Part shown: positions 2,592 to 63,961 of the stretch, in pieces
Layout: every line of letters starts with the position of its first letter
How positions within the stretch are numbered: position 1 is the first letter of the stretch
IMG/VR virus record: IMGVR_UViG_2974751938_000001
Location: 106-64,105 of that record
Strand: one strand, 5' to 3'
Length of the DNA stretch: 64,000 bases
From: a virus
Lineage: Duplodnaviria; Caudoviricetes
Notes under the pieces: generated by a model
Told to the model about the DNA's origin: nothing
The model's database searches: none
Seen by the model: the letters and a program-made list of their open reading frames with translations, nothing else
Made by a program: the position numbers and the translations under genes

Positions 2592-2846
2592 TTGGCCCAC
2601 AAGGTGAAGCTGACGTTCTACTGCGACGAGGCTGACTGCAAGGTCAACCAGACGTTCGTGACCAGCCTGGAACGCCCCTTCCACACGCTCAGCGGTCGAG
2701 GGGACAGCCAGTCGGTCATGACCGTGCTCACGAAGACGATGGGGTGGCGCGTGCTCACCGCGGGAATGGGTACTGAGCGGCGGATTGTCTCGCTGTGCCC
2801 GCGCCATGCCGAGAGTCCCTGGGATTCGGGGTTGACGTCAATATGA
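2592..2846 (+). CDS. Small Zn-binding protein (CDxxxC..GW..CxxH)
   Basis: Motifs CDEADC, GW, CPRH. Confidence 0.6.
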   Translation: MAHKVKLTFYCDEADCKVNQTFVTSLERPFHTLSGRGDSQSVMTVLTKTMGWRVLTAGMGTERRIVSLCPRHAESPWDSGLTSI

Positions 2847-2860
2847 ACACTCGGTATGGT
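2832..2860 (+). promoter_or_regulatory. SigA-type promoter with operator over the -35
   Basis: TTGACG-N17-TATGGT, ATG 6 nt later (leaderless); contains GTTGACGTCAAT. Confidence 0.75.
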
Positions 2861-2866
2861 GTTCTC

Positions 2867-3088
2867 ATGGCAAACACCACAGAGACCGTCCGCTCGACCT
2901 CGATCCTGCCGACGGCCCTGCTCATCACGTTCATCGTCCTGAAGCTCACCGGCGTCATCGCCTGGTCCTGGGTGTGGGTGCTCTCCCCGCTCTGGATTCC
3001 GCTGGTCGTCGCGCTGATCATCTCGATCATCGGAGCGATCGTCGTCATCATGATCGGAGGCCTGCGCAATGACCGACGCTGGCCGTGA
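2867..3088 (+). CDS. Membrane protein (2 TM)
   Basis: Hydrophobic LLITFIVLKLTGVIAWSWVWVLSPLWIP; leaderless start. Confidence 0.75.
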   Translation: MANTTETVRSTSILPTALLITFIVLKLTGVIAWSWVWVLSPLWIPLVVALIISIIGAIVVIMIGGLRNDRRWP

Positions 3089-3755
3089 GCGCACCGAGCG
3101 CGAGAAGCTGATCGAGGAGTACGTCGGCACCGAGTTCGGCAAGGACGCGAACGTCGACAAGATCCTCCGGTCACTCGATCCGTTGCGCGGTGAGCACCGT
3201 CAGCCGACCCCGGAGGTCGAGCGCAAGCTGCTCGATCGGATCGACGAGATGACCCGGCGCCGCGCCGAGATCCTCCGGACCGGGACGCTCCCGCCGATCT
3301 ACGGCAAGCCCGAGATCCATCCGGTGTTCGATGCCGACGGTGGCCTGATCAGCGAGGGCATGGTCGCCGACGAGCACCTGCCGAACAAGCCCTACCTGCG
3401 CGAATACCACTTCGGAGGGCCTCGTGCCGGGAAGACGCTTCGGCTGACGAACGCGATGGACGAGGTCGATCCGGAGGTCGTCAAGGAGGTCTTCGAGCGG
3501 TTCAACAAGCTCGGGAAGGACCTCGCGGAGGCCTTGGCGCCGATGATCGAGCAGTTCCGTACGGCCTTCCAGTCGATCAACGACTTCGTCGAGGCCAACC
3601 CGGAGTTGTTCGTCGACAAGCCGGTCCACCCCCACGGCGTCCGCGACGAGCGCGGCATCCCGAAGCCGAGCAACGTGGTCCCGTTCTGGGCCAACGACCC
3701 CGGTCGATCCCGACCGGCCAAGGGCCGATCCCGCGGGAAGGGCAAGAGCAGATGA
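3069..3755 (+). CDS. Hypothetical protein
   Basis: 228 aa ORF in the coupled gene run. Confidence 0.65.
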   Translation: MTDAGRERTEREKLIEEYVGTEFGKDANVDKILRSLDPLRGEHRQPTPEVERKLLDRIDEMTRRRAEILRTGTLPPIYGKPEIHPVFDADGGLISEGMVADEHLPNKPYLREYHFGGPRAGKTLRLTNAMDEVDPEVVKEVFERFNKLGKDLAEALAPMIEQFRTAFQSINDFVEANPELFVDKPVHPHGVRDERGIPKPSNVVPFWANDPGRSRPAKGRSRGKGKSR

Positions 3756-3886
3756 GCGCGAAGGTCCAGGAAGAGACCGTCTACGAGGCATTTTGCTGGG
3801 ACTGCGACTGGTTCAGCCCCAACTACGACGAAGAATCCCAGGCCGAACGAGCGGCCGAAGAACACAACGAGGAGCACCACTCATGA
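3752..3886 (+). CDS. Small C2H2-like Zn-finger protein (44 aa; not in ORF track)
   Basis: MSAKVQEETVYEAFCWDCDWFSPNYDEESQAERAAEEHNEEHHS; ATGA overlaps at both ends. Confidence 0.65.
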   Translation: MSAKVQEETVYEAFCWDCDWFSPNYDEESQAERAAEEHNEEHHS

Positions 3887-4455
3887 CAACAGAGATCGCC
3901 AACCGAGGCCCGTATCCGCCGGACAAGGTCGAGAACCACCCGGAGGCCCGTATCGACCCCGAGGACGGGTACAACTGGGGTCCCGAGGACAACGGCACGA
4001 TGCCGCGCAACGTCGAGATCCTCGGCAAGGCCGTGGTCGGCCGCCGGATCGTGCGCGCGGCCGTCGAGGAGATCCGCCCCGAGGACTTCGCCGCCGCCGA
4101 CGAGGACATCTACTGGTCGGACTACGGCCGGAGCAAGGGCCTCGTGCTCACCCTCGACGACGGCCGCCGAGTCGTGCTGGTCGACGGCGGGGACTGCTGC
4201 GCGTACACCAGCCTCGAAGAGTTCCTGCTCAACCCCGAGATGGTGGACCACGTGATCACCGGCGTCGCCTCGACCGAGGGGTTCACGAAGTGGCACATCT
4301 TCGCTGATCACGGCGACATCATGCGCCTGAAGGTCGGCTGGTCGCCCGGCAACCCGTTCTACTACGGCTACGGCTTCGACATCGCGGTCAGCAACACGAT
4401 CGAGGGAACCGTGGTCGAGAACGAACTGCCCCACGTCCAGCGGGAGTTGCCGTGA
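3883..4455 (+). CDS. Hypothetical protein
   Basis: GGAG RBS; ATGA coupling. Confidence 0.7.
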   Translation: MTTEIANRGPYPPDKVENHPEARIDPEDGYNWGPEDNGTMPRNVEILGKAVVGRRIVRAAVEEIRPEDFAAADEDIYWSDYGRSKGLVLTLDDGRRVVLVDGGDCCAYTSLEEFLLNPEMVDHVITGVASTEGFTKWHIFADHGDIMRLKVGWSPGNPFYYGYGFDIAVSNTIEGTVVENELPHVQRELP

Positions 4456-4685
4456 ACGACGCCGAGAAGCTCCGCGTCGTCGAGATCGAGGCGAAGCTGT
4501 TGGAGCGGGCCGACGAGGTCTTCCGGACCGCATGGCGAGAGGCACCCCTTGGCGCCGACGGGATCAAGGTCGGCCTGAAGGCCCTGGTCGACGCCGGTCT
4601 GCTCATCGACCTGTCGGCCTACCCGATCCGGGTGATCCAGGCCTTCGGGGACGAGGACGGCGTGCGGAGGGACCCCGATGAGTGA
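4452..4685 (+). CDS. Hypothetical protein
   Basis: GTGA coupling; 77 aa. Confidence 0.6.
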   Translation: MNDAEKLRVVEIEAKLLERADEVFRTAWREAPLGADGIKVGLKALVDAGLLIDLSAYPIRVIQAFGDEDGVRRDPDE

Positions 4686-5082
4686 GGTCACGCTGGACCG
4701 GCTGCTGATCGGCCTGCCGGACGTCTACCACCCAGCGGTCACCGCGACCTGGCGACACCGAGAGGGGTTCCGGGACCCGGTAGAGCTTCAGGCCGCGGTG
4801 GACGGTCTGCTGGCGCTCGCGTCCGAGGTCATCAACATGGCCGACGACGACCGGCAGGCCGACCTCCGGCACCCGAACCGCTGGCGACTCGATCACCAAG
4901 CCTGGGCCAGCGCCGCATGGGACGACGCCGAGGCCTGCCCGCGGGACGAGAACGGGCAGATCGAGTGGAGCCACCGAGGCCAGTTTTGGCTGCACTTCTC
5001 GGCAGGAAACCTCGCTCACGCTGGCGGTTTGCTCATCCTGATCGTCGGCGAGACCCAGGACGAACTGATGGGTCGACCATGA
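4678..5082 (+). CDS. Hypothetical protein
   Basis: GGAGG RBS; 134 aa. Confidence 0.65.
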   Translation: MSEVTLDRLLIGLPDVYHPAVTATWRHREGFRDPVELQAAVDGLLALASEVINMADDDRQADLRHPNRWRLDHQAWASAAWDDAEACPRDENGQIEWSHRGQFWLHFSAGNLAHAGGLLILIVGETQDELMGRP

Positions 5083-5336
5083 CCCTGATGCCGTCGTCAC
5101 CAGGCTCGAAGAAGGGGCTGTCGCGGCTCGGCCGTGGCGGCACGAAGGAATACCGCGACCTCGTTCGCAAGATCGAGGCCGCCGGTGGGGAGGTCCGTAA
5201 ACCCACCGGCAAGGGGCACCCGAAGGTATACCTCGGCGGCCGATTCATCATGACGCTGTGCTGTACCCCCTCCGACCACCGGTCGAGGAAGAACGAACTC
5301 GCTCGGCTACGCCGGGCTGGATTGGAGATCTCATGA
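5079..5336 (+). CDS. HicA-like toxin (dsRBD-fold mRNA interferase)
   Basis: 85 aa basic protein with GKGHPKVY (conserved GH) and TPSDHRSRKNELARLRR. Confidence 0.65.
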   Translation: MTLMPSSPGSKKGLSRLGRGGTKEYRDLVRKIEAAGGEVRKPTGKGHPKVYLGGRFIMTLCCTPSDHRSRKNELARLRRAGLEIS

Positions 5337-7087: not shown

Positions 7088-7116
7088 TTGACAGAGTTGA
7101 CGTCAACGCTTACACT
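7088..7116 (+). promoter_or_regulatory. Consensus SigA promoter with operator in the spacer
   Basis: TTGACA-N17-TACACT; GTTGACGTCAAC at 7096-7107; ATG 6 nt after the -10. Confidence 0.85.
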
Positions 7117-7122: not shown

Positions 7123-7545
7123 ATGCTAATGGGAGAAGACGACGACGGACTCGTCCGGATCGGGATCGAGAACGAAGACGGCGAGATCAAGGTCAAGGCG
7201 ATGGAACCGGTCATCGCCCGGCAACTCGGCAAGGTCATGATCGCGCTGGCCGACGAGCGTGAGGGTGTCGAGCCCCGCCACGTGGCCCTCCGGCGACGCT
7301 GGAAGCCCGGCGGTGAGCGCGACATGGCGAACTACATCGTCGGCTGGTCTGTCGGCATGGGGTTCTTCTGGGCCAACTCCGACTGGACCGGCCACTGGTG
7401 GATCTTCGGCGGCCAGATCGCCCTCGGCGCGATCATCGGTGGTGCTCGGGTCTGGCGCGACGCCGCAGACGAGGCAGAGGAGCGCCGAGAGCGCTACCAC
7501 GGCCCGTCGGTCGACGAGACCACCGGGAGGCTGCCGTGGCAGTGA
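7123..7545 (+). CDS. Membrane protein
   Basis: Two hydrophobic segments in the C-terminal half; leaderless start. Confidence 0.65.
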   Translation: MLMGEDDDGLVRIGIENEDGEIKVKAMEPVIARQLGKVMIALADEREGVEPRHVALRRRWKPGGERDMANYIVGWSVGMGFFWANSDWTGHWWIFGGQIALGAIIGGARVWRDAADEAEERRERYHGPSVDETTGRLPWQ

Positions 7546-27100: not shown

Positions 27101-29653
27101 GCCGCCGCGACGCCGATCAACTGGGTCATCAACCACGTGATCAACGGTGGTATCGGCCGAGCATGGAAGGCCGTCGACAACTTCCTCGGTGGGCACCTGC
27201 CCGACTGGAAGGACGTCGGTACCATCGGCGGCGAGCAGCCTGGCGCACCCGGCATGGCCCGCGGTGGTGTCGTCCCGATGGAGCCCGGCGCCGTCGCTGG
27301 CAAGGACTCGGTCAACCGCGTCCTGATGCCCGGCGAGTTCGTGCTGTCGGTCCCCGCCGTGAAGGCCGTTGGACTCGGCAACCTCATGAACCTCAACACC
27401 GCGGCGCTCAACGGCAACCGCAGTGCGAACCAGGGCATGATCCCGCAGACCAACGCCGGTGCCGTCCGGCTGGCGAACCGCCAGTACGGCATGGAAGGTG
27501 GCGGCGAGGTCAAGAAGGGCGACCCGGCGTGGGAGGCCGTCAAGCGCGGCATGGACTACGCGCAGCGTCACCAGCCCCGGCCCTACGTCTGGGGTGGCTC
27601 GTCCGGCCCCGACGGCGGTACCGACTGCTCCGGCTGGATGAGCGAGATCGCCGACGTCGTGCTCGGCGGGGGAGGCCTTCAGCGCAAGTGGGCCACCGGC
27701 GCGTTCCCCGGCGGCGGCGGCACCCAGGGAGACACCGTCAACGCTGGCGGTCAGACCTGGAAGGGTGGCCTGAAGGCCGGTATGTCCATCGGCGTCTCCA
27801 CGGTCCACACCGCGGGCACGATCGGCGGGCTCCCCGGCCTGGCGGCCACCAACATCGAGTCCGGCGGCAACACCGGCCAGGGTCCGACCTTCGGCGGTCC
27901 GGCCGTCGGCGCCGACCACGGCCAGTTCCCGTCGCGCTACCACCTGCCCATCGTTGACGGCGAGTTCGTCGGCGGTGGCGGTGGCGACGACACCGAGCAG
28001 GTCCGCAAGGGCATCACGCGCTGGGCCGAGAAGGCCTTCGACACCGCGCTCTCGCCGGTCAAGAACCTGCTCAACAGCGCGATCTTCAACCCGCCGCCCA
28101 TGCTCCGAGAGGTCCCTCGGAACATGTACAACGGCATGGTCGAACCGGCCAAGGACAAGCTGCTCGACAAGGTCTCCGATCTGACCTCGGTCAGCGGGTG
28201 GAAGAACCGTCTCGGCGGCGCCGTCTCCTCGATCCGCAAGGGAGTCGGCGGCGCGCTCGAAGGGGTCAAGAACTTCCTCTTCGACACCGGCGGCGTCATC
28301 CGCCCCGGCACCACCGTGGTCCAGAACGACACCGGCCAGGACGAGTACCTGCTCAACCCGCTCGACACCGTCCTGCTCCGCGGGCTCACGTCGGCGCTCC
28401 GCGCACTCGGCGTCAACCCGTCGATCAATGCCACCCCGAGCACCCCGACCACGCCGAGCACGACTACGACGCCCGACACCCAGGACGTCAACATCTCCTC
28501 GGTCGGCGGGAAGAACACCACCCCCGGAGAACTGCCGGTCCCTGAGCAGAAGGAGATCGCGCCGCCGACGGAGGCCGACCTCAACGACGGCGTCACCAAC
28601 GACGGCCAGCAGAAGCAGCGCACCATCGACGCTGTCATCGCCGAGGGCAAGCGCCGCAACCTCTCTGACGACGACATCAAGGCCGCGATCGCGACCGTGC
28701 TCGTCGAGTCCGAGGGCGAGATCTACGCGAACGAGTCGGTCCCCGAGTCGATGCAGATCGCGCACACCAAGGTCGGCAGCGACCACGACTCGGTCGGCCC
28801 GTTCCAGCAGCGGAACTCGTGGGGCAGCGCGGCCGATCGTATGGACCCGACCAAGTCCGCGGGCCTGTTCTACGACGCGCTCGCCAAGTCCGGCGCTACC
28901 GGCACCACCGGCCAGCGCGCGCAGGCCGTCCAGCGGTCCGCGTTCCCGGAGAAGTACGACCAGCGCACCGAGGAGGCCGCCGGGTACCTCGCGAACTACA
29001 AGCCTGCCGGTGACACCCCGGCTGGGACCAAGAACGACCCGGTCAACGTCACCACTAACGACGACTGGCCGACCACCGCGAAGGGGGTCGAGCCTGGCGA
29101 CAAGACGGGGAGTGCCTACGACCAGAACCTTCAGGGTGCGGCGATCGGCAAGGACGGCTCGTACAAGCCGGACAACAACGTCACCCCCGGAACCGACAAG
29201 GGAGGGCTCGCCAAGCAGAGCCCGACCCTTCAGCAGTTGTGGGACTCGCAGTACGGCAAGACCGCGCAGAGCTTCGCCAAGCACACCCCGCTCGGCATCG
29301 GCGGCCCCCAGATGGAGACCATCGGCAAGAAGATCCCCGCGATCAGCGAGCTTGCCACCGGCGTCGCCAAGGCCGCCCCGTCGTGGGCCGCAGCGCTCGC
29401 TGGTGACCCGACCCAGTTGGCCGCCAACGTCGCCACGGCGACCGGCGCCTGGGCCACGAAGACCGCGACTGACTTCGCCAGCTACATTCCGGAGAACGCC
29501 GGAGGCATGTTCGAGTCGCTGCTGTCGGCCGCCGCTGGACCGCTCATTGGTACTGTCAACACCGGTATGAGCAAGGACGACTTGACGTCAACTATGGAAG
29601 ACGTGCAGAACCGGCAAGCCCGCCGTACCAAGACCGGACGACGGAGGTACTGA
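24110..29653 (+). CDS. Tape measure protein with C-terminal NlpC/P60-like and lysozyme-like domains
   Basis: 1847 aa with amphipathic repeats; YVWGG..TDCSG; IATVLVES..HDSVGPFQQR. Confidence 0.93.
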   Translation: MAKTFLVGEGAVRLVPNAAGFHQRARKDLAGTKLNVGVDLRPDAKGFRQEARSRLQPIKLTHDVKLRADATGFSRDAKAKLDARKQLVVKAKIEATVDRGSIATAHKEMQAQLSAMGPLKVEIGASVDNASLRRALDFLRAKVEAARITANINSRNGANRGGYGAGGGGRGGSGGGRGRPARTAAITTGVVMAPIVTKAAVGGLTALVGAASQAAGALGLLPAAATAAGAGLAAIAIGAAGIGGAFSALGKESASAGNAVEQSASQQASAQRQIEQADRGLATAHRGVTRALEDLNAARKDAVRRLRDMNDELKMAPLNEREAALAIKEATKRLQEAYASGDSLEIEGAQIDLEKSKLQYDQLKKQNSDLAADVAEANKKGVEGDSQVIQAKDGVTDAVNGLKDAQDALASAMESAAESTKSMAGGVDQLAQAMAKLSPNAQDFVRKVHALGPAWTETRKFIQDRLFEGMGDAVTNLATRQLPVLKIGLAGIAGELNGGVREALGVFSTASAAKDFATTLENIRQMWSGIADSFAPFSQGFIDVTTVGSEFMPRLGTAVRDMAFSFRDSMAEWRADGTMQNFFETSLTMAKQLGRILGNVGAILYQVFSAGAEVGGGFLNTIETATAELREFLGSAEGQEGLKTFFEGVKVAVQTLAPIIQIVASTLLTTLGPALTDLVIGLGPGLVAMFEGLSQGLGAIQPVMSVVGEALGGLGRELGEVFKVLGPVIAETLAALAPAVTPLAQLLGSIIKGLAPILPLIGTVVGALVGALAPAFQKITDALGPVIQSLVDALMPVIPPLAEAFGQVASVLGGALAEIITALAPVIGEIALGFADLVMALLPILPVLADLVTDLLPGIMTVLNAILPIIPTIVQALVSVVNFIVPILIPVLNVLSTVVSTVFTWIANIIGWAIRNVVVPVLTFVIKAVTNVGDIFTWLWNNAIKPAWDGLSTAIKWAWENVISPVFESLKTGISKVGDFFSNVVDGIKKTWETLKNAAATPINWVINHVINGGIGRAWKAVDNFLGGHLPDWKDVGTIGGEQPGAPGMARGGVVPMEPGAVAGKDSVNRVLMPGEFVLSVPAVKAVGLGNLMNLNTAALNGNRSANQGMIPQTNAGAVRLANRQYGMEGGGEVKKGDPAWEAVKRGMDYAQRHQPRPYVWGGSSGPDGGTDCSGWMSEIADVVLGGGGLQRKWATGAFPGGGGTQGDTVNAGGQTWKGGLKAGMSIGVSTVHTAGTIGGLPGLAATNIESGGNTGQGPTFGGPAVGADHGQFPSRYHLPIVDGEFVGGGGGDDTEQVRKGITRWAEKAFDTALSPVKNLLNSAIFNPPPMLREVPRNMYNGMVEPAKDKLLDKVSDLTSVSGWKNRLGGAVSSIRKGVGGALEGVKNFLFDTGGVIRPGTTVVQNDTGQDEYLLNPLDTVLLRGLTSALRALGVNPSINATPSTPTTPSTTTTPDTQDVNISSVGGKNTTPGELPVPEQKEIAPPTEADLNDGVTNDGQQKQRTIDAVIAEGKRRNLSDDDIKAAIATVLVESEGEIYANESVPESMQIAHTKVGSDHDSVGPFQQRNSWGSAADRMDPTKSAGLFYDALAKSGATGTTGQRAQAVQRSAFPEKYDQRTEEAAGYLANYKPAGDTPAGTKNDPVNVTTNDDWPTTAKGVEPGDKTGSAYDQNLQGAAIGKDGSYKPDNNVTPGTDKGGLAKQSPTLQQLWDSQYGKTAQSFAKHTPLGIGGPQMETIGKKIPAISELATGVAKAAPSWAAALAGDPTQLAANVATATGAWATKTATDFASYIPENAGGMFESLLSAAAGPLIGTVNTGMSKDDLTSTMEDVQNRQARRTKTGRRRY

Positions 29654-42175: not shown

Positions 42176-42576
42176 AGCATCTCCTCGGTATCCTGCTCAT
42201 CGAGCAGGATCTCAGCCACAGAATCGAAATGGACCCCGCACCCCGGACAGAGGAACGGGTAAGTCAGGTAGTTCTTGAAGTAGCTCTCGTGAGCAGCGCA
42301 GAGCATGATCTTACTCACCAGCAGGCCGCCGACGTAGGTGTACTCGGTGAAGTCCTCGCCGTGCCGAACGAACTTCCGCGGGTCTGACCAGCAGGGGCAC
42401 AGACGCATGAAAAACATCTTTGTAGTGCGGTTTTGGCAGCCCTGGGGGTCGATCTCGGCGAGTCGAAGCTCAGACGGCAGCGGCTTCCCCGTGGTCAGCC
42501 AGAGCATCTTCTTGGTCTCGCAGATCATCCCCTTCGACTGGAAGTCGAGGCCCGCGAGAGCCTTGTCGATGTCCAC
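42172..42576 (-). CDS. Cys-rich hypothetical protein
   Basis: CPC, CAAH and CPGC motifs; GAAGGA RBS. Confidence 0.6.
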   Translation of the reverse strand: MDIDKALAGLDFQSKGMICETKKMLWLTTGKPLPSELRLAEIDPQGCQNRTTKMFFMRLCPCWSDPRKFVRHGEDFTEYTYVGGLLVSKIMLCAAHESYFKNYLTYPFLCPGCGVHFDSVAEILLDEQDTEEML

Positions 42577-42925
42577 GTGGGGTTCCTTCTGGTCGGGATC
42601 GGTTGTTGATCAACTCCCCGCCGTAGATGCCCTCGGCGAGGGGGTCGGAGCGCGCCGCCGAGAGGCAGGTGGCGCGCTCCGGACAGGCCCGGCAGACGGC
42701 CTTGGCCGCCTCGTATCGGTGTGCTCGGGCTACTGCGCTCTCGCCCTTCGCGTTCTTCTCGCCGCCCCCGTCCAACTCGGCATCCCAGAGCCAGGCGCCG
42801 ATGAACCGACCCCGTTGGGAGCACAGTGCGCGCTTCCAGTTCACCGCCTGTCGGACGGGGGAGGCGAGATTCTCGATGAGCATGTCGGCGAGTTCCTCGA
42901 CGCTCATCCTGTTCTTGCTGGTCAC
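42470..42925 (-). CDS. whiB: WhiB family transcription factor
   Basis: Four Cys (ALC, CRAC, ATC) and GIYGG; the C-terminal extension overlaps the next gene by 107 nt. Confidence 0.85.
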   Translation of the reverse strand: MTSKNRMSVEELADMLIENLASPVRQAVNWKRALCSQRGRFIGAWLWDAELDGGGEKNAKGESAVARAHRYEAAKAVCRACPERATCLSAARSDPLAEGIYGGELINNRSRPEGTPRGHRQGSRGPRLPVEGDDLRDQEDALADHGEAAAV

Positions 42926-43203
42926 TCGGGTCGCTTCACTCGATCGACGGCCGAGATGATGTTCTCTCGGACGACCTCGGGGCTGAAGTAGACCAGGATG
43001 CCCTGCATTTCGAGCCGCTCGGCCAGCAGGCGCATCATGTTCTCGTTCGAGATCCCCTGCTCGGGGTCCCAGTCGTCGTCGAGTCGCTTCACCGGGTGGA
43101 CGTTTTTGCCCACCGACAGCTTGCCCTCTTCGTAGTCGTTGGCGATCGAAGCGATCGTCGTCGACAGCCGGTCCGCGACCTCCGCGGGATCGAGCCGCTT
43201 CAC
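42922..43203 (-). CDS. Hypothetical protein
   Basis: GTGA coupling on both sides. Confidence 0.6.
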   Translation of the reverse strand: MKRLDPAEVADRLSTTIASIANDYEEGKLSVGKNVHPVKRLDDDWDPEQGISNENMMRLLAERLEMQGILVYFSPEVVRENIISAVDRVKRPE

Positions 43204-43676
43204 GCGAGCTTCCCAGCGTGTTCGAGCGAGCGGATCGACTCGCGGTAGTAGCGGATCTTCTTGCCTCCGAGCGGCCGGACGCCGATGATCTTGCCCTCGC
43301 GCTCCCACCGGCGCAGCGTCGGCCGGGAGACACCCATGCGGTACGCGACGGAGTCGGCGTCCTCGGTCTCCTCGATGGTCTCGCGCAGATCGCGGGCAGC
43401 CTTCATCGCCTCGTCGGCATCTTCCGAGCCCCAGAACGGGCTGGCCGGAGAGATCCGTCGCAGACTGGCGACGATCTCCTCGTGGTTGTCGAGGATCGAC
43501 GCGAGCCAATACTGACGGAAAGAGTTGCCCTTCTTCGCCTCGCGCAGACCGTCCACCTTGTACTGGGTCACCGCGCGCCGGAGGATATGTTCGGGGATTC
43601 CGAGCAGCTTGGAGGTCTGCTCCAAGCTCACGAGTCCCTTTTCCTTCGATGCCATTCTATTCCCTTCAGTGTTCAT
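43200..43676 (-). CDS. Tandem MerR/Xis-like helix-turn-helix DNA-binding protein
   Basis: SLEQTSKLLGIPEHILRR and DSVAYRMGVSRPTLRRWEREGKI..IRY. Alternative start at 43655. Confidence 0.8.
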   Translation of the reverse strand: MNTEGNRMASKEKGLVSLEQTSKLLGIPEHILRRAVTQYKVDGLREAKKGNSFRQYWLASILDNHEEIVASLRRISPASPFWGSEDADEAMKAARDLRETIEETEDADSVAYRMGVSRPTLRRWEREGKIIGVRPLGGKKIRYYRESIRSLEHAGKLA

Positions 43677-44419
43677 GTTGACTCCAACCCTAGCATACCC
43701 CGGCGGTTTGCCTCGGCCAAGATCGGCCATGCGGCGAAGATCTTGGAGCGCTGCTCGCGGGTCTTGCGGACGAACAAAATCGCATGTCGATCGGCATCGC
43801 GAGCGTGCCGGGAGCCGGGGGTCCAGAACCCCCATTGCTTCAGCCGGTCGTCGGTGCAGGTGGTCTTCGCCTCCGACGGCTGCTGCTTGTACGTCGTGAC
43901 GTCCTTGCCCTCCCAGAGCAACTGTTGAAGCGCCGCGGTGATCCGGACCGGCGACAGTGCGTCGCGGGCCTGGGTCTGGGTGCGCAAGATGAAGTCCTCG
44001 ATCACGACCGCGGACCGCGGGATGCCGCCGCCGAGATGGATCAGACGCTCGCAGAGGAACACTCCGGCCGCCTCGCCAGTCTCGGACTCACCGAGGTCGT
44101 ACCCCTGCGCCAGCGCCGACGAGCCCGCGTTGCCGGACATGGCACCGCAGTCGATCTCGCCGTGCCACCACTGGGTGATCATCTCGTGCGGCCGAGTCTT
44201 CTTGTCGAACAGACGTTCGATGTCCAGGCGCATGATCGACCAACCGGTCGTACCGCCGGGGTCGAAGGCGACCACGCTCACCCCGCGGGAGAGGAGGGCC
44301 TTCAGCCTGTCGTCGGAGAGCGCGGCAACCCGATCCACCAGCGGGTCCGGGTACTCGGGGTTCTCGCCGAAGGCCTGCTTGCGATCGAGCCAGGTCTTCG
44401 GGGTGTCGCGTGCCTTCAC
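43673..44419 (-). CDS. ruvC: RuvC-like Holliday junction resolvase
   Basis: VAFDPGGTTGWS, VIEDF and HARDA motifs. Confidence 0.85.
   Translation of the reverse strand: MKARDTPKTWLDRKQAFGENPEYPDPLVDRVAALSDDRLKALLSRGVSVVAFDPGGTTGWSIMRLDIERLFDKKTRPHEMITQWWHGEIDCGAMSGNAGSSALAQGYDLGESETGEAAGVFLCERLIHLGGGIPRSAVVIEDFILRTQTQARDALSPVRITAALQQLLWEGKDVTTYKQQPSEAKTTCTDDRLKQWGFWTPGSRHARDADRHAILFVRKTREQRSKIFAAWPILAEANRRGMLGLEST
44205..44220. promoter_or_regulatory. Perfect actinobacterial LexA/SOS-box match inside ruvC
   Basis: TCGAAC-AGAC-GTTCGA. Confidence 0.35.
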
Positions 44420-44508: not shown

Positions 44509-47500
44509 AGATCTTCCAACTCGATCAGGGCCAGGTCCTCGGCCTGGACGCTCGGCCCGTGCCCGTCGCGGGAGAGGCCGAGCACGTGGACGGCCGTGCT
44601 GGTGTTCCAGTCGGCCAGGGTGCTCGCGTGCTCGGGGTAGAGGAACCGATGGACGTAGATGTGGACCTCGATGCCCTCGGCGTCCTCGGCGATGATGGTG
44701 GCCTTGGTCGTCTTGTCCGGGTCGTTGGTCTCGGCCCGGATCTGCTCGACCGACTTGCCGGAGCGCTTGCGCAGTTGTTCGATGTGGTCCTTGATCACGA
44801 CCTCCTTGATCAGGCCGATGAAGACGATCTTCTCGTCGACCGATTCGAGCAGGAGGTTCGAGGGGGTCGCCCCGCCGAGCAGACCGAGTTCGCCGTCGGC
44901 GATCGCCTCCTCGATCCGGTCGACCGCACGAGCAGCGCGGTTGAGCCCGAAGGGGTCTTTGGACTCGCACATCTGTTCGATCTTCTCGATCATCTTCGGG
45001 CCGACGCCGGGCACCCCCTTCGAGGGCTCGTCCGGCTTCGTCTTCCGGCCCTTCTTCGCCGCGACGTAGCGCATCTCCGACCAGGACCGGTCGAGCGCCG
45101 CGAAGTTGATCGCCTTGCCCTTCACCGGCGCCCCGATCTCCCGATCGCGCCACTGGATCATCTTCGCCCCGACCTTGTCGCCGACGCCGACGATCTGGGT
45201 GAAGCCAGCGCGCAGGCTGTCGTAGCTCGGGCCGACGAACCCCCTCTTCGGGGTGCCGTCCTCGCGGAGCCCGTCGAACGAGCGGGTGTTGCCCGGCTCC
45301 CAGGTCAGCCGGGACTTGCCCAGGTCGGGACCGAGCACGCGGATCTCGTGGCGAACGGCGTCCTGCATCAGCACGACGTCCTGTCCCTTCGTCACGTCGG
45401 CACGCCGGAGGGCCGCCGCGTAGAACTCGGTCGGGTAGTAGAACTTCAGCCAGGCCAGCCAGTAGCCGACGACGGCGTAGCAGACCGCGTGCGCGATGTT
45501 GAAGAGGTAGCTCGACGAGGCCGCCATGTAGTCCCACAACTCGCGTGCGTCGGCCTCGGGCATCCCGATCTCCCGCTGCATCCCGTCGCGAAACTCCTCC
45601 CAGAAGGCCTCGAACGCGCCGCCCTGTTTCTTCTTGCCGATGATCCGGCGCAGCGCGCCGACTCGCTCGCCCGGCATCCCGGCGACGCGGCCCATCCCCA
45701 TGACCTGTTCCTGGTACACCAGGCAGCCGTTGGTCGAGGACAGCACGTCGTTGATCTCGGGGTATCCCCAGTCGCGAGGAGGCTCGGTGCCAAGCTCGAC
45801 GGCCTCGTAGTGCGAGGTCTGGCCGGAGATGAGCGCGCCGGGCCGAGAGAGCGCGTTGATGTCGGCCAGGTGCCGGAACTCGAAGGTCGTCTGACCGGCG
45901 AGCTTGTCGACGATCCCGCGGGTCGTGCGACCGTCGAACTGGAAGATGCCGGTGAGATCTCCGGTCCCGAAGACGCCGTCGAGCACGGCCTGGTCGTCCA
46001 GCGGAAGCGCATAGAGTTCGTTGTGCGTCATGCCGATCCAGTCGAGCACGTCGGTGATCAGGCCCATCGTCTTCAGCCCGAGAATGTCCATCTTCAACAT
46101 GCCGAGGTACTCGGCGTCGCGCTTGTCGTAGGCGATGCCTCGACGGGTCACCCCGTCCTTGGTCTGGGTGTAGATCGCGCACGTGTCGGCGATCGGCTTC
46201 GTCGAGATCACCAGACCGGCCGCGTGAATGCCCATTCCGCGGTAGTCGCCCTCGATGTCGCGAGCCATGAGCAGGTCAGGGTACTTCTTGACGATCTGCT
46301 TGGCCCGATCGAACCCGGCGATCGCGTCGACCACCGAGTAGTTCTCCCGCGGGTCGCCGTCGTCGCGGTCCACGATCAGGTCCTTCAGTTCGTAGACCTC
46401 GGAGAAGTCGTCGAGTTCGTGTGCCCTGGCGACGTCCTGGATCGCGGTGCGACCGCGGTAGCGCATGTAGTTGGCGATGTGGCTGGTGTGGGCCTCGCCG
46501 TACTTCTGCCGCGCGTACTCGAAGACGGCCGCGGGGTTGGCGAAGTCGATGTCGATGTCCGGCTCATCCGGCCGCGAGGGGTCGATGAAGCGCTCGAACT
46601 GCATGAGCGGGAACTGCATCGGGTCGATCTCGGTGATCCGGAGCAGGTAGCAGATCAGCGATCCGGCGGCCGAACCACGTCCGGGACCAACGCCCTGCTT
46701 GTCGACGTCCTTGGCCCATACGACCAGGTCAGCGGTGACGAGGAAGTAGTCGCAGAACCCCTTCGGCTCGATCAGGCTGAACTCGTATCGCACCCGCTCG
46801 ACGTAGCGGTCGGGGTCCGAGTCGAACCTTTGTGCGAACCGCTCGTCGTTCTCGGCCCGGAACTCGATACCGTCGTTGATCCACTGCTTCAGCCGGTCGG
46901 CGGCCGACATCTGCTTGCCGCGCGCCACGAAGACGGTGCGCTCCGACTTCGGCAACTCGACGTTGCACCGATCAGCGATCTCGCGTGCGCCGTCGACCGC
47001 GGCCTGGGCTTCCATCGGGTCGAGGTCGCAGGCCATGAGCTTCTCGACGCACTGCTCGTCGGACTCGGGGTAGGTCAGCCGGACGTCGTACTCCCAGTCG
47101 GCGTCCTGGGTCGAGACCGTGCCGCCGCGGTGCGCCGCGTGCAGCATCCGCTGGATCGCGTTCTGCTCCGGGTAGGGGTAGTGGACGTCGGCCGTCGCCA
47201 CCGTGGGGATGCCGTCGGCCGCCGCGACGTCGCCGAAGAACTGGTTGAGCAGGACGGCGCGCTCCAACTCGGGGAACATCTGCATTTCGAGGTAGAACCG
47301 GTCCCCGTAGCACTTGACGAACCGGCTGATCAGCGCGCGGGTCTCGTCCACGCTCTCGTCGTCCCAGTCGTCGCGCCGGTCGCCGAGCGACTTGCCGCCC
47401 AGCAGCGTGCAGGAGATCCACGAGTCCGCGCACCCGCTGGTCACGATGAGGCCCTGGGTCAACTCGGGGTTGAGGATCTGGTTCGTGTGCAGCCGCGGGA

Positions 47501-48639: not shown

Positions 48640-48668
48640 AGTGTAAGAGTTGACGTCAACCCTGTCAA
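48640..48668 (-). promoter_or_regulatory. Consensus SigA promoter with operator in the spacer
   Basis: Minus strand TTGACA-N17-TACACT; GTTGACGTCAAC at 48649-60. Confidence 0.85.
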
Positions 48669-51166: not shown

Positions 51167-51186
51167 GTTGACGTCAACTCTACCAC
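51167..51186 (-). promoter_or_regulatory. Extended -10 promoter with operator over the +1
   Basis: Minus strand TGGTAGAGT directly followed by the rest of TTGACGTCAAC, then GAGGAG-ATG. Confidence 0.65.
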
Positions 51187-53125: not shown

Positions 53126-53314
53126 CTACGACATTCGGACCGGGGTCTTGTTCTCGGCACCGCAATCCAGGCACACCCGGTAGCCGATCGAGACGGTGCC
53201 CGCTGGCTCGCCGTTCTCCACCGCGGGCTTGGTCATCATGTGCTTGACCACGGTGTTCTTGTGCTTGCAGGTCCGGCGCAGTCGTTGGGTGGCCCGACGT
53301 TCGGCGCGGTTCAC
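53126..53314 (-). CDS. Small Zn-ribbon protein
   Basis: NRAERRA start; CKH..CLDC. Confidence 0.55.
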   Translation of the reverse strand: MNRAERRATQRLRRTCKHKNTVVKHMMTKPAVENGEPAGTVSIGYRVCLDCGAENKTPVRMS

Positions 53315-56385: not shown

Positions 56386-56414
56386 AGTGTAAGGCTTGAC
56401 GTCAACAGTGTCAA
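56386..56414 (-). promoter_or_regulatory. Consensus SigA promoter with operator in the spacer
   Basis: Minus strand TTGACA-N17-TACACT-6nt-ATG; CTTGACGTCAAC at 56395-406. Confidence 0.85.
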
Positions 56415-57830: not shown

Positions 57831-58000
57831 GTGGTACTCCTCGCGGTGTGCTGATGGGTGATCGGATGATCTGCTCAATGCTGAGATCTGTTGCGATTAG
57901 CGGATATTCCCTAGTACCGGCTGTACCGGCGTACCGGGCTCGACCTGGGTCGGCTCTGTGGTCTCTCGGGTCTCGCGAGTGGCTGGTCTTCGTGCGTCTG

Positions 58001-58016
58001 TCGAACGTCTGTTCGA
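58001..58016. promoter_or_regulatory. Perfect actinobacterial LexA/SOS-box match (intergenic)
   Basis: TCGAAC-GTCT-GTTCGA; reverse complement of the copy at 44205. Confidence 0.45.
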
Positions 58017-58172
58017 TCTCGGGTGTCTCTGCGGGGTCCGGTCTTCTCGACCGTTGGTCACTGTGCCGTGACCCCTACCGCTCACACCCGGCGCTCTTAC
58101 CCTGTCGCCTACTCGCGTGCCCGTCACGCTCGCCGTGTCCGCTATTCGGTTGTCAATCTTCGTTCTGACTCA

Positions 58173-58201
58173 ACTGTAACAGTTGACGTCAACCGGGTCA
58201 A
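58173..58201 (-). promoter_or_regulatory. Leftward SigA promoter with operator in the spacer
   Basis: Minus strand TTGACC-N17-TACAGT; operator at 58182-93. Confidence 0.75.
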
Positions 58202-58341
58202 GTCCCGGCGTGGTCCCGGTGCCTACGCACCCGGTAGCACCGTGTCCGGTGCGCTCTGTTCTTCGTCATGACACCAACATACACACGTAAGGGTTGACGA
58301 TCAACCCAAACAACTGTGATCCACGTCACACACTGTGCGAC

Positions 58342-58370
58342 TTGACGTCAACCCTGACACGGCATAACGT
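58342..58370 (+). promoter_or_regulatory. Rightward promoter of the early cassette, operator over the -35
   Basis: TTGACG-N17-TAACGT. Confidence 0.75.
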
Positions 58371-60207: not shown

Positions 60208-60242
60208 ACACCCCGTTACCCTCACCGGTAGCGGGGTGTTTT
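60208..60242 (+). terminator. Intrinsic terminator
   Basis: ACACCCCGTTACC / GGTAGCGGGGTGT followed by TTT. Confidence 0.75.
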
Positions 60243-60280
60243 GTGTAAGGGTTGACGTCAACGCGAACACGCGCTACTGT
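60243..60280 (+). promoter_or_regulatory. Promoter with 20-bp extended operator
   Basis: GTGTAAGGGTTGACGTCAAC; TTGACG-N17-TACTGT. Confidence 0.8.
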
Positions 60281-60326
60281 TCACCTATCGGCACGAACGG
60301 CGCGCCGCACACCGAAGGATTACGAC

Positions 60327-61016
60327 ATGAGGATTACGACAACCGACGGCCGGACACTGGGACACGTCACGCTGACCGGCGACGACATCGGCGCACTAGC
60401 GCGCGGTGTCGGTGACGACATCGAACGGCGCACCCGTGCCCTGATCGCCGACGCGCGCCGTGCGTCCATTACCGGGGGACCGGCGGCCGGTGCTCCGGTC
60501 CCAGCCGGACGAAGCGACGTCACCCCGGCGGGTGAGGGTGCACCGCGACGGCGTCGGCGCTGGTGGCCGTGGCTGGTGCTCGCGTTACTTGGGTTCGGCA
60601 TTATCGGCGCACTCAGCGACTCAGACGATGACGCCGGGAAGAACTGGACACCCCCGGCCGCGACTGTCGCACCGCAAGAGACGAACGCACTACGCGCCAC
60701 GGTGAGCGCCGACGGTTCGATCGTGATCGGCGGGACCGAAGTCGACAACGTCTACCGTCTCGACTCTCCGCTACGGCAACGGTTCGCCGACGTGATCAAG
60801 TCGCACGGCGTGACCGGTGTCAGCGGCTCACTGTTGGACGCGAACCTACGCGACGGTGTCACGTTCTGCCGTGCGCTCGCACACGGTGACGTCACCGCTC
60901 AGCGTCACGCCGAAGTCGTGACCGGTATCGCCGACGAAGCGACGGCGTACGGCGTCGGCAAGCAACGGCGCGCCGTGGTCACGGCCGCACTGTCGGCACT
61001 GTGCCCGGCACTCTGA
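60327..61016 (+). CDS. Membrane-anchored protein with a DUF732-like C-terminal domain
   Basis: TM segment WWPWLVLALLGFGIIGAL; F...I..HGV...G..FCR..AALSALCP. Confidence 0.6.
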   Translation: MRITTTDGRTLGHVTLTGDDIGALARGVGDDIERRTRALIADARRASITGGPAAGAPVPAGRSDVTPAGEGAPRRRRRWWPWLVLALLGFGIIGALSDSDDDAGKNWTPPAATVAPQETNALRATVSADGSIVIGGTEVDNVYRLDSPLRQRFADVIKSHGVTGVSGSLLDANLRDGVTFCRALAHGDVTAQRHAEVVTGIADEATAYGVGKQRRAVVTAALSALCPAL

Positions 61017-61027
61017 CACCCGTAACC

Positions 61028-61065
61028 GTGTAAGGGTTGACGTCAACCTACACACCCTGTAATGT
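61028..61065 (+). promoter_or_regulatory. Promoter with 20-bp extended operator
   Basis: GTGTAAGGGTTGACGTCAAC; TTGACG-N17-TAATGT. Confidence 0.8.
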
Positions 61066-61098
61066 CTTCCATGTCAGCAACGAACGAAGGAACCGACG

Positions 61099-61395
61099 AT
61101 GACCAGCACATACACCCTTGAACTGACCGACATCGAGCGCGCGTGCGGTGTGACCCTTGACCAGGTCGCCGACGTCCTGCCGAAGGTCGCACTTCGCGAG
61201 AACTGGCAAGAGCGCGCGGTGTGGGTCCCCGACACCCACAACGGTAAGAGCGTCGGCCCGGCGCTCGCCGGTGCCGTGGCACGCGCCGCGCTCGCCGGTC
61301 CGGTTGAGTTCCGCTCTTCGCGCTTCGGCGTGCTGGTGTACGTCCCCGACTACACCCCTCCCGCACCCCCGGCCGGTCTCGCCGGTCTGCTTTGA
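61099..61395 (+). CDS. Hypothetical early protein
   Basis: Leader repeat CGAAGGAACCGACGATG. Confidence 0.65.
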   Translation: MTSTYTLELTDIERACGVTLDQVADVLPKVALRENWQERAVWVPDTHNGKSVGPALAGAVARAALAGPVEFRSSRFGVLVYVPDYTPPAPPAGLAGLL

Positions 61396-61426
61396 TCACT
61401 CACCCACAACCACGAAGGAACCGACG

Positions 61427-61948
61427 ATGAAACTGCACACAAACACCCTGACCGCGGCCGACATCAGCGACGCCGCACGACTGGCAAGCGCCGCGTACAC
61501 CACCGACGACAACGGCAAGACACCCCGGCCGATAGCGGCCGTCGGCGTCGCTCGCGACTCACGGCACGGTAGCCGATCGCGTGCCCGTGCGTTCGATGTC
61601 ATCCTGACCGGCGACGCGACGCACGCGACACAATCGGGTGACGGTCGCGGCGCGTCGTGGGACCAATGGGGCCTGTTCTTGGCGGTTCTCTTCGACCGTG
61701 ACCCGTCGCTCACCGTGCCCGGCGTCTATGTCGACGCTGAGCACTTCGCATGGTCGACCGGCGACCGGTACGGCGTCGGCCGCGACGGTTCCCCGTTCAT
61801 CGTCGGGCACGACTACCACCGACGGCACCGCTGGGAGTACACCGGCACGGCCGCGGGCAACCGGTACGCCGTGAACACGTGCAACGGGTGCGCCGCACAC
61901 ACCCGGCGTCTGATCGGTGGTCACCAGTGGGAAGAACTGAGCGCATGA
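61427..61948 (+). CDS. Hypothetical early protein
   Basis: Leader repeat; SRSR.RAFDV.LTG..ASWDQWG.FLA.LF..DP. Confidence 0.65.
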   Translation: MKLHTNTLTAADISDAARLASAAYTTDDNGKTPRPIAAVGVARDSRHGSRSRARAFDVILTGDATHATQSGDGRGASWDQWGLFLAVLFDRDPSLTVPGVYVDAEHFAWSTGDRYGVGRDGSPFIVGHDYHRRHRWEYTGTAAGNRYAVNTCNGCAAHTRRLIGGHQWEELSA

Positions 61949-62124
61949 GGGCACGCGAACGGCGCGCGCTTCGCGCGGTGACGGCTGACGCGCTCGCCGG
62001 TGTCGTCGCCATTCCGACCGGTTCCCCGGCGTACTGGCAAGCGCTCGCCACACTGCACACCGCACGCGCTCACCGGCGCGCACTACTGACCACCGACCAC
62101 GACGAACGAAGGAACGAACGATGA
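61945..62124 (+). CDS. Hypothetical protein
   Basis: ATGA coupling at both ends. Confidence 0.5.
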   Translation: MRARERRALRAVTADALAGVVAIPTGSPAYWQALATLHTARAHRRALLTTDHDERRNER

Positions 62125-62651: not shown

Positions 62652-62676
62652 CGCTGACCAGCACCAACCACCGACG

Positions 62677-62710
62677 CACCCGGCACCGGCACACGGTCGC
62701 CGGGTGTTGT
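62677..62710 (+). terminator. Probable terminator hairpin
   Basis: CACCCGGC-ACCG..CGGT-C-GCCGGGTG followed by TTGT. Confidence 0.55.
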
Positions 62711-62713
62711 CGT

Positions 62714-62751
62714 GTGTAAGGGTTGACGTCAACGCGCACGCCGGGTACTGT
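62714..62751 (+). promoter_or_regulatory. Promoter with 20-bp extended operator
   Basis: GTGTAAGGGTTGACGTCAAC; TTGACG-N17-TACTGT. Confidence 0.8.
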
Positions 62752-62787
62752 GAGTGCATACCAACCGAACGAACGAAGGAACCGGAC

Positions 62788-63078
62788 ATGATTCACACCC
62801 TGTACACCGCAACCACGACCACCGACTACGCGACGCGCGACGAAGCGCGCACGGCGCAACTGGCACACCCGGAGCGTCTAGGCTCTTCGATCGAAGCGCG
62901 GCCGGGCTACCTGGTCACGTTCAACGCTGGCAACGTGCGGCCGATCGCCGGGGACATCGAAGAGATGACCGAACGTGCGGCGCGTCTGCTCACCGTGCGG
63001 ACCGTGCGCGCGCTCGCCGACGGTCGCCTAGTCGACGCCGGTTGCGGCATGACGGTCGGCCGGTACGCCGTCGCCTGA
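62788..63078 (+). CDS. Hypothetical early protein
   Basis: Leader repeat CGAAGGAACCGGACATG. Confidence 0.65.
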   Translation: MIHTLYTATTTTDYATRDEARTAQLAHPERLGSSIEARPGYLVTFNAGNVRPIAGDIEEMTERAARLLTVRTVRALADGRLVDAGCGMTVGRYAVA

Positions 63079-63093
63079 TCGCTGAAGACTCAC

Positions 63094-63126
63094 ACCCCTG
63101 TTACCACCAGGTAGCGGGGGTTTCTT
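63094..63126 (+). terminator. Intrinsic terminator (near-copy of 60208)
   Basis: ACCCCTGTTACC / GGTAGCGGGGGT followed by TTCTT. Confidence 0.75.
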
Positions 63127-63133
63127 CGTGTGT

Positions 63134-63961
63134 GGGTAGGGGTGTCACGGGGTAGGGGTGTCTGGGAGGGGTCGCCATATGGCGCGCTCTGAGCGACGCT
63201 CAGCGGGTGTTACGGCGTGGCCTGGTGTCGGTGCCCTGGTGTGTCGTCGCTTCGTTGTCGGCGCGCTGATCGGCGTCTATGGGTAGGCCTATGGGGAGGG
63301 GTAGGCGATATTTTTTTATTTATCAATGTGCATTGCAATGGTGAATAAATGGCATTGTGTGAATGGATAAATAAATGATTGTTTCAGAATAAATAAATGT
63401 GTGAATATGAATGGCATATATAGGTAGGGGGTAGGGGTCCTATATAGGGGGTAATATGTGCATATCCATATATATTTAGATATGCTAATAATAATCAATA
63501 TGATTGTGAGATATTATTATGTTTGATTGTTTATGTTGACGTCAATATAGATATATGAATGGTGATTGATTGTGTGTGTGGTGTGAGCAGATAGGGGAGG
63601 GGGTAGGGGGTGTCATGGGGTACGGGGGTGTCTTCGTGTGGCGCGCGCTGGTGGTGTGATCGGTTGCGGCCGTTGGCCTATGGGGTAGGCAGTGGGTAGG
63701 GGTGCGGTGTGGTGGTGGTGTGGTTGGCCTGGTGGTGTGCTGGTGGGTGTTGGTGCGGCCGTTGGGGTGTCGGCGTCGTCGGGTGTGTGGTGGCCGTGCG
63801 TAGCGGTGTCTGAGCGTGCCGTGTGCGGGTCCGATCGGGTGAGGGTAGTCGGCTGGTGGTCGGTGTGATTCTGTCGTGTGTGCGTGGCTCTGACCTGGTG
63901 GTATGGCATGGCTGAAGGGGTCCGGTGTCGGGGGAGGATCGCGAAGGGTACCGGGGGTGTC
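63134..63961 (+). repeat. GGGTA(N0-2)GGGG(G)TGTC repeats near the right end
   Basis: Copies at 63134, 63150, 63601, 63618 and 63946. Confidence 0.65.

Follow-up and report, generated by a model that had tools for sequence, protein, structure and literature searches.

A perfect palindrome of 10 base pairs (bp), TTGACGTCAA, occurs 12 times in a 64,000-nucleotide stretch of phage DNA (hereafter the window; 64,000 of the 64,105 bases of IMG/VR virus record IMGVR_UViG_2974751938_000001), and at most of its positions it is built into a predicted promoter of the host SigA type. It is likely, judging from comparison of the window with related phages and with host genomes, that the palindrome is the core of an operator, and that one phage-encoded repressor binds the predicted operator and switches the non-structural promoters jointly. 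The palindrome is strongly enriched in the window, keeps to three fixed promoter geometries, is conserved across the subfamily and is not enriched in the host genus. From these observations we infer the binding, the sign of the regulation and its timing.

The window and its copies of the palindrome

The structural genes of the window are about 79% identical in DNA sequence to those of the Gordonia phages Flapper, GTE5, GRU1, Patio and others, and by this sequence the phage is a member of Gordonia Cluster CR (Zierdtviridae, Emilbogenvirinae). Its TerL is at most 85% identical to that in any record and its tandem helix-turn-helix (HTH) protein at most 47%, so that the window represents a new, divergent member of the cluster. 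Cluster CR genomes are circularly permuted (PMC5559632), and the gene order in the window follows the usual layout of the cluster:

17-574: small terminase gene
up to about 12.8 kb: rightward arm of small genes
ending at 39.6 kb: structural and lysis operon
39.6-58.1 kb: leftward replication arm, with primase-polymerase, WhiB-like, tandem HTH, RuvC, DnaE, Sak4-like ATPase, RecB-like nuclease and helicase genes
58.4 kb to the window end: second rightward arm of small genes

The original prediction described an apparently lytic phage in which no integrase or immunity repressor was visible. The literature likewise calls Cluster CR phages lytic, as a prediction (PMC13313380), and neither integrase nor repressor families were found in Pfam scans of the non-structural open reading frames (ORFs) or in the annotations of the relatives. 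Rfam and tRNA scans of the window found nothing.

The 12 exact copies lie at the coordinates first claimed for them and far exceed expectation: the mean of 100 dinucleotide-preserving shuffles was 0.02 copies, and none of the shuffles reached 12. The palindrome is the commonest of its length in the window, the next one having four copies, and it has the dyad symmetry of a classical operator. At seven of the 12 sites it is part of a 12-mer form, GTTGACGTCAAC. Three variants had been placed near 900, 58293 and 43677; they are present at 901, 58293 and 43678, the last at a promoter described below. The structural half holds only one of the 12 copies, which is inside a gene and has no promoter context, while 10 of the 12 lie in promoters. 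The elements without an assigned promoter are as follows:

901-910, no strand: one-mismatch variant ATGACGTCAA, in an ORF-free stretch between the small terminase gene and gene 2, without promoter geometry
29582-29591, no strand: core copy in the tape-measure gene, without promoter geometry or outer arms (see below), function uncertain
58293-58305, no strand: variant with a one-base insertion, GTTGACGATCAAC, between two divergent promoters
63536-63545, no strand: core copy near the right end, in an AT-rich island, with ambiguous geometry in the window

The variant at 901 is not conserved in Flapper. Where coding identity in this part is high, in Flapper, GTE5 and RedRaider, the tape-measure copy is retained; Wheezy, Bonum, IDyn and MerCougar lack it. 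At 63536 a consensus scan flags a class-2-like match on the minus strand (TTGACG, 18 bp, CATAAT; the classes are defined below), and the syntenic copy of Wheezy and Bonum sits in a class 1 promoter on the plus strand. The right end around this copy (63079-64000) appears non-coding; it is G/T-rich and includes a sharply AT-rich island (about 63350-63600), in which the one core lies. Similar islands with a core or one-mismatch core are present in Wheezy (66586), Bonum (64047), MerCougar (68411), Flapper (67107) and RedRaider (67996).

Position of the palindrome in predicted promoters

The position of the palindrome relative to promoter elements was assessed twice, by a sigma-70-like consensus scan of both non-structural arms and by a separate register classifier applied to the window and seven relatives. 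In the scan, all three 10-of-12 matches in 46-64 kb contain the core, as does the sole 10-of-12 match in 1-13 kb. In the eight genomes, about 50 of the 60 sites fall into three registers, pointing toward the downstream genes. In class 1, a -35 element (TTGACx) is followed by 2-4 bases, the core, 4-5 bases and a -10 element (TAnnnT); this gives a spacer of 16-18 bp and places the core at about -26 to -17. All four class 1 promoters of the window run from TTGAC(A/C) to TACA(C/G)T with a 17-bp spacer. In class 2, bases 1-6 of the core are themselves the -35 element, and a TAnnGT -10 element follows 17-18 bp downstream (17 in the window), which puts the core at -35 to -26. In class 3, the last T of an extended -10 element (TGnTAnnGT) is the first T of the core, which extends from -7 to +3. 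The three geometries that had been proposed, over the -35, in the 17-bp spacer and over the +1, are thus borne out by both the scan and the classifier. By the same assessment, 10 of the 12 window copies overlap the -35, spacer, -10 or +1 of a predicted promoter, and those at 29582 and 63536 fall outside all three classes. The promoters are:

2832-2860, plus strand: class 2; core 2832-2841 serves as -35 (TTGACG), 17-bp spacer, -10 TATGGT at 2855-2860, leaderless ATG at 2867, 6 nucleotides after the -10
7088-7116, plus strand: class 1; -35 TTGACA at 7088-7093, core 7097-7106, -10 TACACT at 7111-7116, leaderless ATG at 7123
48640-48668, minus strand: class 1, DnaE/RuvC operon; -35 at 48668-48663, core 48659-48650, -10 TACACT at 48645-48640
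51168-51185, minus strand: class 3; extended -10 TGgTAGAGT at 51185-51177, upstream of the Sak4-like ATPase gene (ATG 51149)
56386-56414, minus strand: class 1, helicase/RecB-like operon; -35 TTGACA at 56414-56409, core 56405-56396, -10 TACACT at 56391-56386, leaderless ATG at 56379
58173-58201, minus strand: class 1; -35 TTGACC, core 58192-58183, -10 TACAGT; first leftward promoter of the divergent control region
58342-58370, plus strand: class 2; core serves as -35, -10 TAACGT at 58365-58370; first rightward promoter of the divergent region
60252-60280, plus strand: class 2 cassette; -10 TACTGT, with GTGTAAGGG upstream and a shared AACGAACG-type leader downstream
61037-61065, plus strand: class 2 cassette; -10 TAATGT, paralogous to 60252 and 62723
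62723-62751, plus strand: class 2 cassette; -10 TACTGT, paralogous to 60252 and 61037

Core-bearing sites therefore stand at the head of essentially every transcription unit of both non-structural arms. At 2832, 7097 and 56396, as at the equivalent sites of relatives, exactly 6 nucleotides separate the -10 from the ATG. Leaderless mRNAs of actinobacteria have this spacing, which supports real leaderless promoters at these places. Class 2 leaderless promoters syntenic to 2832 are found in Wheezy, Bonum, IDyn and MerCougar; sites syntenic to 7097 in Flapper (6939), GTE5, Wheezy, IDyn and RedRaider; and sites syntenic to 58342 in Flapper (60699), GTE5, Bonum and MerCougar. The class 3 geometry of 51168 is identical in all seven relatives examined. 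In the divergent control region, about 300 nucleotides (57879-58172) separate the leftward promoter at 58183 from the first leftward gene (start 57878). They contain no convincing ORF (third-position G+C content, GC3, 0.64) and no Rfam match, and a gap of about 350-590 nucleotides is present at the equivalent place in Flapper and Wheezy. The stretch could be a long leader or an unannotated RNA.

We propose that TTGACGTCAA would be the central part of an operator with dyad symmetry, that a single sequence-specific protein of the phage, probably dimeric, would bind there, and that the putative operator is built into the host-SigA-type promoter of almost every non-structural transcription unit. 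Rightward units would start at 58342, 60252, 61037, 62723, 2832 and 7097, and leftward units at 58183, 56396, 51168 and 48650. The protein bound at -35 to -26, -26 to -17 or -7 to +3 would compete with RNA polymerase (RNAP). As a repressor it would shut off or feedback-limit all non-structural operons together, and the operator-free structural operon would run on. A fixed RNAP element cannot sit at the -35, in the spacer and at the +1, which argues for a binding protein distinct from RNAP and probably dimeric. The RNAP footprint covers all three registers, and the promoters are near consensus with optimal spacers, which points to repression rather than activation. The earlier proposal of one regulator for these promoters, which it presumed to be early and middle ones, fits the three RNAP-occluding positions, as well as the conservation at syntenic promoters and the lack of host enrichment described below.

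The palindrome might instead be read by host RNAP with no separate regulator, as two back-to-back TTGAC -35 elements spread by cassette duplication. In its favor, class 2 promoters take TTGACG, a sequence close to consensus, as their -35; paralogy among the three right-arm promoter cassettes is clear; and class 1 promoters have a direct TTGAC repeat 9 bp apart. However, a -35 has no function where the core lies in class 1 (the spacer) or in class 3 (-7 to +3), and at most sites of these two classes no usable -10 is present 16-18 bp from the core on either strand. Core bases 7-10 have no -35 role, yet they are invariant in class 2 promoters, and the non-sigma half of the palindrome (TCAA) is in general as invariant as the sigma half, again indicating a separate binding protein. 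Non-paralogous syntenic promoters also keep the core while their hexamers and spacers drift. An intrinsic promoter element is accordingly an improbable account of the palindrome.

It is also quite improbable that the site recruits an activator or a sigma-modifying factor, for example the phage WhiB-like protein acting on region 4 of SigA, or a MerR-type activator in the spacer. The phage does encode a WhiB-like protein and a MerR/Xis-type HTH protein; MerR-family activators bind dyads in promoter spacers, as textbooks describe; and the core positions of classes 1 and 2 are 9 bp apart, about one helical turn. MerR-type activation, however, requires spacers of 19-20 bp, whereas the class 1 spacers are 16-18 bp (17 in all four window promoters) and spacers in general are at the optimal 17-18 bp with near-consensus hexamers. 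WhiB7-type activation requires a site upstream of the -35. A site at -7 to +3 is incompatible with activation. As to the WhiB proteins, the second one of the relatives is absent from the window, and the first is also present in CoffeeBean, a Rhodococcus phage that lacks the motif.

Extent of the predicted operator

The original prediction regarded the site as an asymmetric element of about 20 nucleotides, extended by GTGTAAG(G/A/C)(G/C) and oriented differently in different promoter classes. The flank exists in the window as described, at seven sites, but the asymmetry finds no support, since the core is symmetric with weak symmetric arms and GTGTAAG has other explanations. In class 1 promoters it is simply the -10 read on the opposite strand (cTTACACt). 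The copies at 60252, 61037 and 62723 are part of the three paralogous promoter-leader cassettes that share the AACGAACGnAGG leader, and the class 2 promoters of the relatives, including the equivalents of these cassettes, lack the sequence. The shared leader and ribosome-site cassette of the right-arm genes lies at 60285-60330, 61070-61100 and 62755-62790. CoffeeBean, without the operator, has seven copies of a related cassette of 12-20 nucleotides, ACGAACGGAGCAAGGCA, before its right-arm genes.

Weak arms become visible when half-sites are pooled (92 from six genomes). A C directly follows the core in 67%, and A(C/A)A is found at +6 to +8 outward on both sides, with A at +8 in 72%. About 9 bp separate the inner elements from the outer ones, which places them on the same side of the helix. 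The outer arm is present in nine of 13 class 2 spacers, at about -20 to -18, against a background of 1%; sigma makes no base contacts at these positions. At class 3 sites, the transcribed side has the outer arm in the window and IDyn, and Bonum and Wheezy have AAG or AAT there. The arms of class 1 sites fall on TGxCA in the -35 element and on ACA in TACAnT. These alignments are best summarized by a dyad, TGT-N5-TTGACGTCAA-N5-ACA, that spans about 26 bp, its core invariant and its arms loosely kept.

Conservation in relatives and absence from hosts

Exact copies were counted in relatives and in unrelated phages:

Flapper: 9 copies
GTE5: 8 copies
MerCougar: 8 copies
Wheezy: 7 copies
Bonum: 6 copies
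IDyn: 5 copies
RedRaider: 3 copies and 10 one-mismatch sites, mostly TTGACGCCAA at syntenic promoters
CoffeeBean (Rhodococcus, CR6): 0 copies
MacGully (Rhodococcus, CR7): 0 copies
Nocardia phage NC1: 0 copies
Corynebacterium phage Darwin: 0 copies
Unrelated controls Madi and Apeppi (Gordonia) and PLot (Mycobacterium): 0 copies each

The copies in the seven relatives, which come from diverged lineages, lie at syntenic promoters. When three syntenic leftward promoters were aligned from six or seven phages, the core was 0.99-1.00 conserved against 0.52-0.71 for 35-bp flanks; in the alignment at 48650, core identity is 0.99 and that of the flanks 0.61-0.71. The hexamers themselves drift between relatives (TACACT, TACATT, TAAAGT, TACAGT, TATCAT). 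Because the core is kept while the flanks and the -35 and -10 hexamers drift, the element is under strong purifying selection, and from its distribution it is a trait of the Gordonia-infecting CR subclusters. A pattern scan of IMG/VR for the class 1 architecture gave mostly single chance matches, and several per genome were found only in Cluster CR.

Two departures from this pattern were seen. In RedRaider (PV329801), TTGACGCCAA replaces the perfect palindrome at 54099, 61973, 62110, 64504 and 66642, including a non-paralogous class 3 site, which could mean that operator preference shifted in concert or that the cassettes underwent gene conversion. CoffeeBean (PP978888) has a lone TTGACGACAA at 45718-45727, in the exact class 3 register (TGaTAGCTT, then the core) and in a 25-bp gap before DnaE, possibly a relic of the network or a forerunner of it.

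The base-exact registers bear on whether the palindrome is primarily a mark of module boundaries for recombination, replication or packaging, its association with promoters being secondary. Copies do lie at operon boundaries, a variant is present in an origin-like region (901) and a copy in the AT-rich end island (63536), and a palindromic core could allow flanks to be exchanged in either orientation, which might explain GTGTAAGGG upstream of class 2 promoters. However, registers exact to the base relative to the -10 and -35 at about 50 sites in eight genomes would not be expected of such a mark, a loop-less palindrome of 10 bp cannot form a stable cruciform, and the structural arm has no copy except the one inside a gene. 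A boundary mark is thus highly improbable.

The restriction of the motif to Gordonia-infecting subclusters, with none in the Rhodococcus, Nocardia and Corynebacterium relatives, could also mean that the phage exploits a DNA-binding protein of Gordonia that recognizes the site. The window does hold sites of a host regulator type, two perfect LexA-type boxes (TCGAAC-N4-GTTCGA) that are mirror images of each other, at 44205-44220 and 58001-58016. The second closely follows the leftward promoter at 58183, within the untranslated stretch there, so that this operon may be under host LexA as well. For the palindrome itself, however, 41 Gordonia genomes (about 193 Mb) have 48 copies, 0-4 per genome, half the number of the reversed control (100), and the genomes of Nocardia wallacei and Millisia brevis have none. 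The density in the phage is about 750 times that in the host. The motif is at or below chance in the 41 genomes, and a host regulon was rejected as very unlikely; with no host regulon, a host transcription factor becomes implausible as the binder. The motif is also missing from the unrelated phages Madi, which shares the host strain, and Apeppi, which shares the host genus. There is, in all, only a slight chance that a host protein reads the site.

Candidate binding proteins

If the repressor is phage-encoded, as we favor, few recognizable proteins could fill the role. Searches with Pfam and PHROGs found only three proteins of DNA-binding type in the non-structural arms: the gene 2 product, with a primase-type winged helix; a WhiB-like protein (42470-42907); and a 158-residue protein of MerR/HTH_17 type (43200-43676). 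All three had been put forward before. The tandem HTH protein stands as the best, unproven candidate. The winged-helix gene 2 (1177-1674; cited earlier by position 1213) was rejected as a common binder, having no tblastn homologue in the motif-bearing Flapper, Wheezy and IDyn, and the single WhiB is an unlikely binder. A second WhiB, Flapper gp76, was likewise rejected, being absent from the window. The WhiB-like ORF of the window overlaps the start of the next gene by about 100 nucleotides in another frame (42470-42576), as in Flapper, and its C-terminal tail, RG(H/L)RQ(G/D), is found only in Gordonia phages and not in CoffeeBean.

The features of the tandem HTH locus are:

43200-43676, minus strand: tandem winged-helix gene, 158 residues; Pfam MerR/HTH_17, two Xis/BldC/MerR-type domains
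43678-43695, minus strand: class 3-type extended -10 promoter (TGcTAGGGT) of this gene; degenerate core TTGGAGTCAA, equivalent to TTGACTCCAA at 43678, with two mismatches; ATG at 43676, one base on

Homologues of the protein are present in all CR phages, including every motif-bearing one. AlphaFold2 (pLDDT 87.8, pTM 0.79) predicts two winged-helix domains joined by two long helices. The best structural matches are Pukovnik Xis (4j2n), BldC (6ama/6amk) and TraN (4p0z), folds that each domain matches with TM-scores to target of 0.7-0.8; TraN is also similar in its tandem layout. The recognition helices of both domains contain x-(I/T/V)-LRR. In the model, the two domains of each chain could, in a dimer, cover four successive major grooves, fitting the 26-bp dyad. 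The promoter of the gene is conserved in Flapper, RedRaider, Wheezy, IDyn and CoffeeBean, and its core-like sequence becomes progressively weaker outside the group of the window and Flapper. A degenerate core at its own promoter might be expected of a regulator gene that is autoregulated or escapes repression. Our tentative choice for the operator binder is this tandem winged-helix protein, and we give about as much credit to a phage protein of no recognized family.

About a dozen small genes are common to the motif-bearing phages and were undetected in CoffeeBean; Pfam and PHROGs place none of them in a recognizable DNA-binding family. Among their products is an arginine-rich protein of 57-59 residues (61948-62121), which is 75-84% identical across Gordonia CR phages, far above its neighbors, and has no family match. 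It was considered as a ribbon-helix-helix binder and rejected, AlphaFold2 giving a plain helical hairpin that lends no support. A small basic protein of the same set (53129-53314, minus strand) has a zinc-ribbon-like CxH...CxxC motif and is 65-72% conserved in motif-bearing relatives; it was not detected in CoffeeBean. At 5100-5330 there is a homologue of HicA-like toxins, 47% identical to Flapper gp08 and also found in Wheezy and IDyn, with no obvious HicB partner noted.

Several observations weigh against one phage-encoded repressor, and against the tandem HTH protein in that role. The -35 consensus TTGAC is present on both strands of the core, so RNAP alone accounts for some of the conservation seen in class 2. 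The syntenic sites, coming from related phages, do not count as independent of one another. The C-terminal recognition helix of the tandem protein, SRPTLRRWEREGKI, is identical in the motif-less CoffeeBean and MacGully, and the N-terminal one varies among phages whose core is invariant. No alternative enriched palindrome was found in CoffeeBean, and there was no signal of co-variation between operator and protein.

Relation to known systems

In mycobacteriophages of Cluster A, many copies of a short phage-specific site are spread over the genome, and a single phage protein that recognizes them governs most non-structural transcription (PMC9283540, PMC6550527). The system proposed here resembles the Cluster A stoperators and their L5 gp71-type immunity repressor in having one short site repeated throughout the genome for one regulator. 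Stoperators are asymmetric, orientation-dependent sites of 13-14 bp, found mostly in intergenic DNA that is transcribed, where they stop elongation. The repressor that reads them is monomeric, and the phages are temperate with integration or partition functions (an integrase or parABS). The CR site, in contrast, is a perfect palindrome with weak symmetric arms built into the promoter, and it belongs to lytic phages in which no gp71-like protein, immunity repressor or integrase is seen. The network was originally called analogous to but distinct from the stoperators, and this description agrees with what we find.

In its geometry the site is closer to the operators of lambdoid phages. In λ OR/OL and in P22, RNAP is occluded from sigma-70-type promoters by dyad operators that lie over the -35, the spacer or the +1, and the P22 Arc repressor acts during lytic growth. 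The CR dyads resemble these operators, Arc/Mnt included, in overlapping promoters. The difference is in their distribution: the lambdoid operators are few and clustered at one or two control regions of a temperate phage, whereas here about 10 dispersed promoters have one identical core each, in three registers, and no lysogeny module is present.

An invariant dyad scattered through an actinobacteriophage genome has a precedent in the Cluster O mycobacteriophages, where a 17-bp dyad, TGTTCGG-N3-CCGAACA, is present in more than 30 scattered copies, its binding protein and function being unknown (PMC4351075). Those genomes also have strongly predicted SigA promoters and leaderless starts (PMC4351075), as does the window. 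The Cluster O repeats, however, are mostly outside promoters, many within genes or at gene ends, and their sequence is unrelated; in the window 10 of 12 copies are in promoters. From these comparisons the CR network would work like a classical operator-repressor regulon and is not a member of the Cluster A or Cluster O systems. No description of the motif in a phage was found in the searchable literature, which included Cluster CR and Gordonia papers and did not extend to the GTE5/GRU1 paper (Petrovski 2012).

The candidate binder has relatives of its own. BldC and Xis are single-domain proteins that bind direct repeats head to tail, unlike the tandem phage protein, whereas TraN has two such HTH units per chain, as the candidate does. 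To our knowledge, neither BldC/Xis nor TraN binds this palindrome. The most specific form of the proposal is doubtful, though possible: that the lytic Emilbogenvirinae run all non-structural transcription through a single self-encoded global repressor of a new type, a tandem Xis/BldC-like winged-helix dimer spanning about 26 bp, acting, in three registers, on a 10-bp operator frozen in the diverged lineages compared.

Implications

Temporal control in lytic actinobacteriophages is almost unstudied, and here the wiring of a whole subfamily can be read from sequence: about ten host-type promoters with one operator, set against an operator-free structural operon. One site together with a short list of proteins offers a tractable way into the shut-off of early genes without a sigma factor or an RNAP-modifying enzyme. 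With one and the same operator throughout the subfamily, the protein of any one phage would be expected to work on all the others. If so, related phages that co-infect a cell would cross-regulate each other, and one could exclude another, a form of "immunity without lysogeny." The 10-bp operator is nearly absent from Gordonia genomes and, combined with the strong leaderless promoters, would make a compact orthogonal switch for Gordonia and other mycolata, for which genetic tools are scarce.

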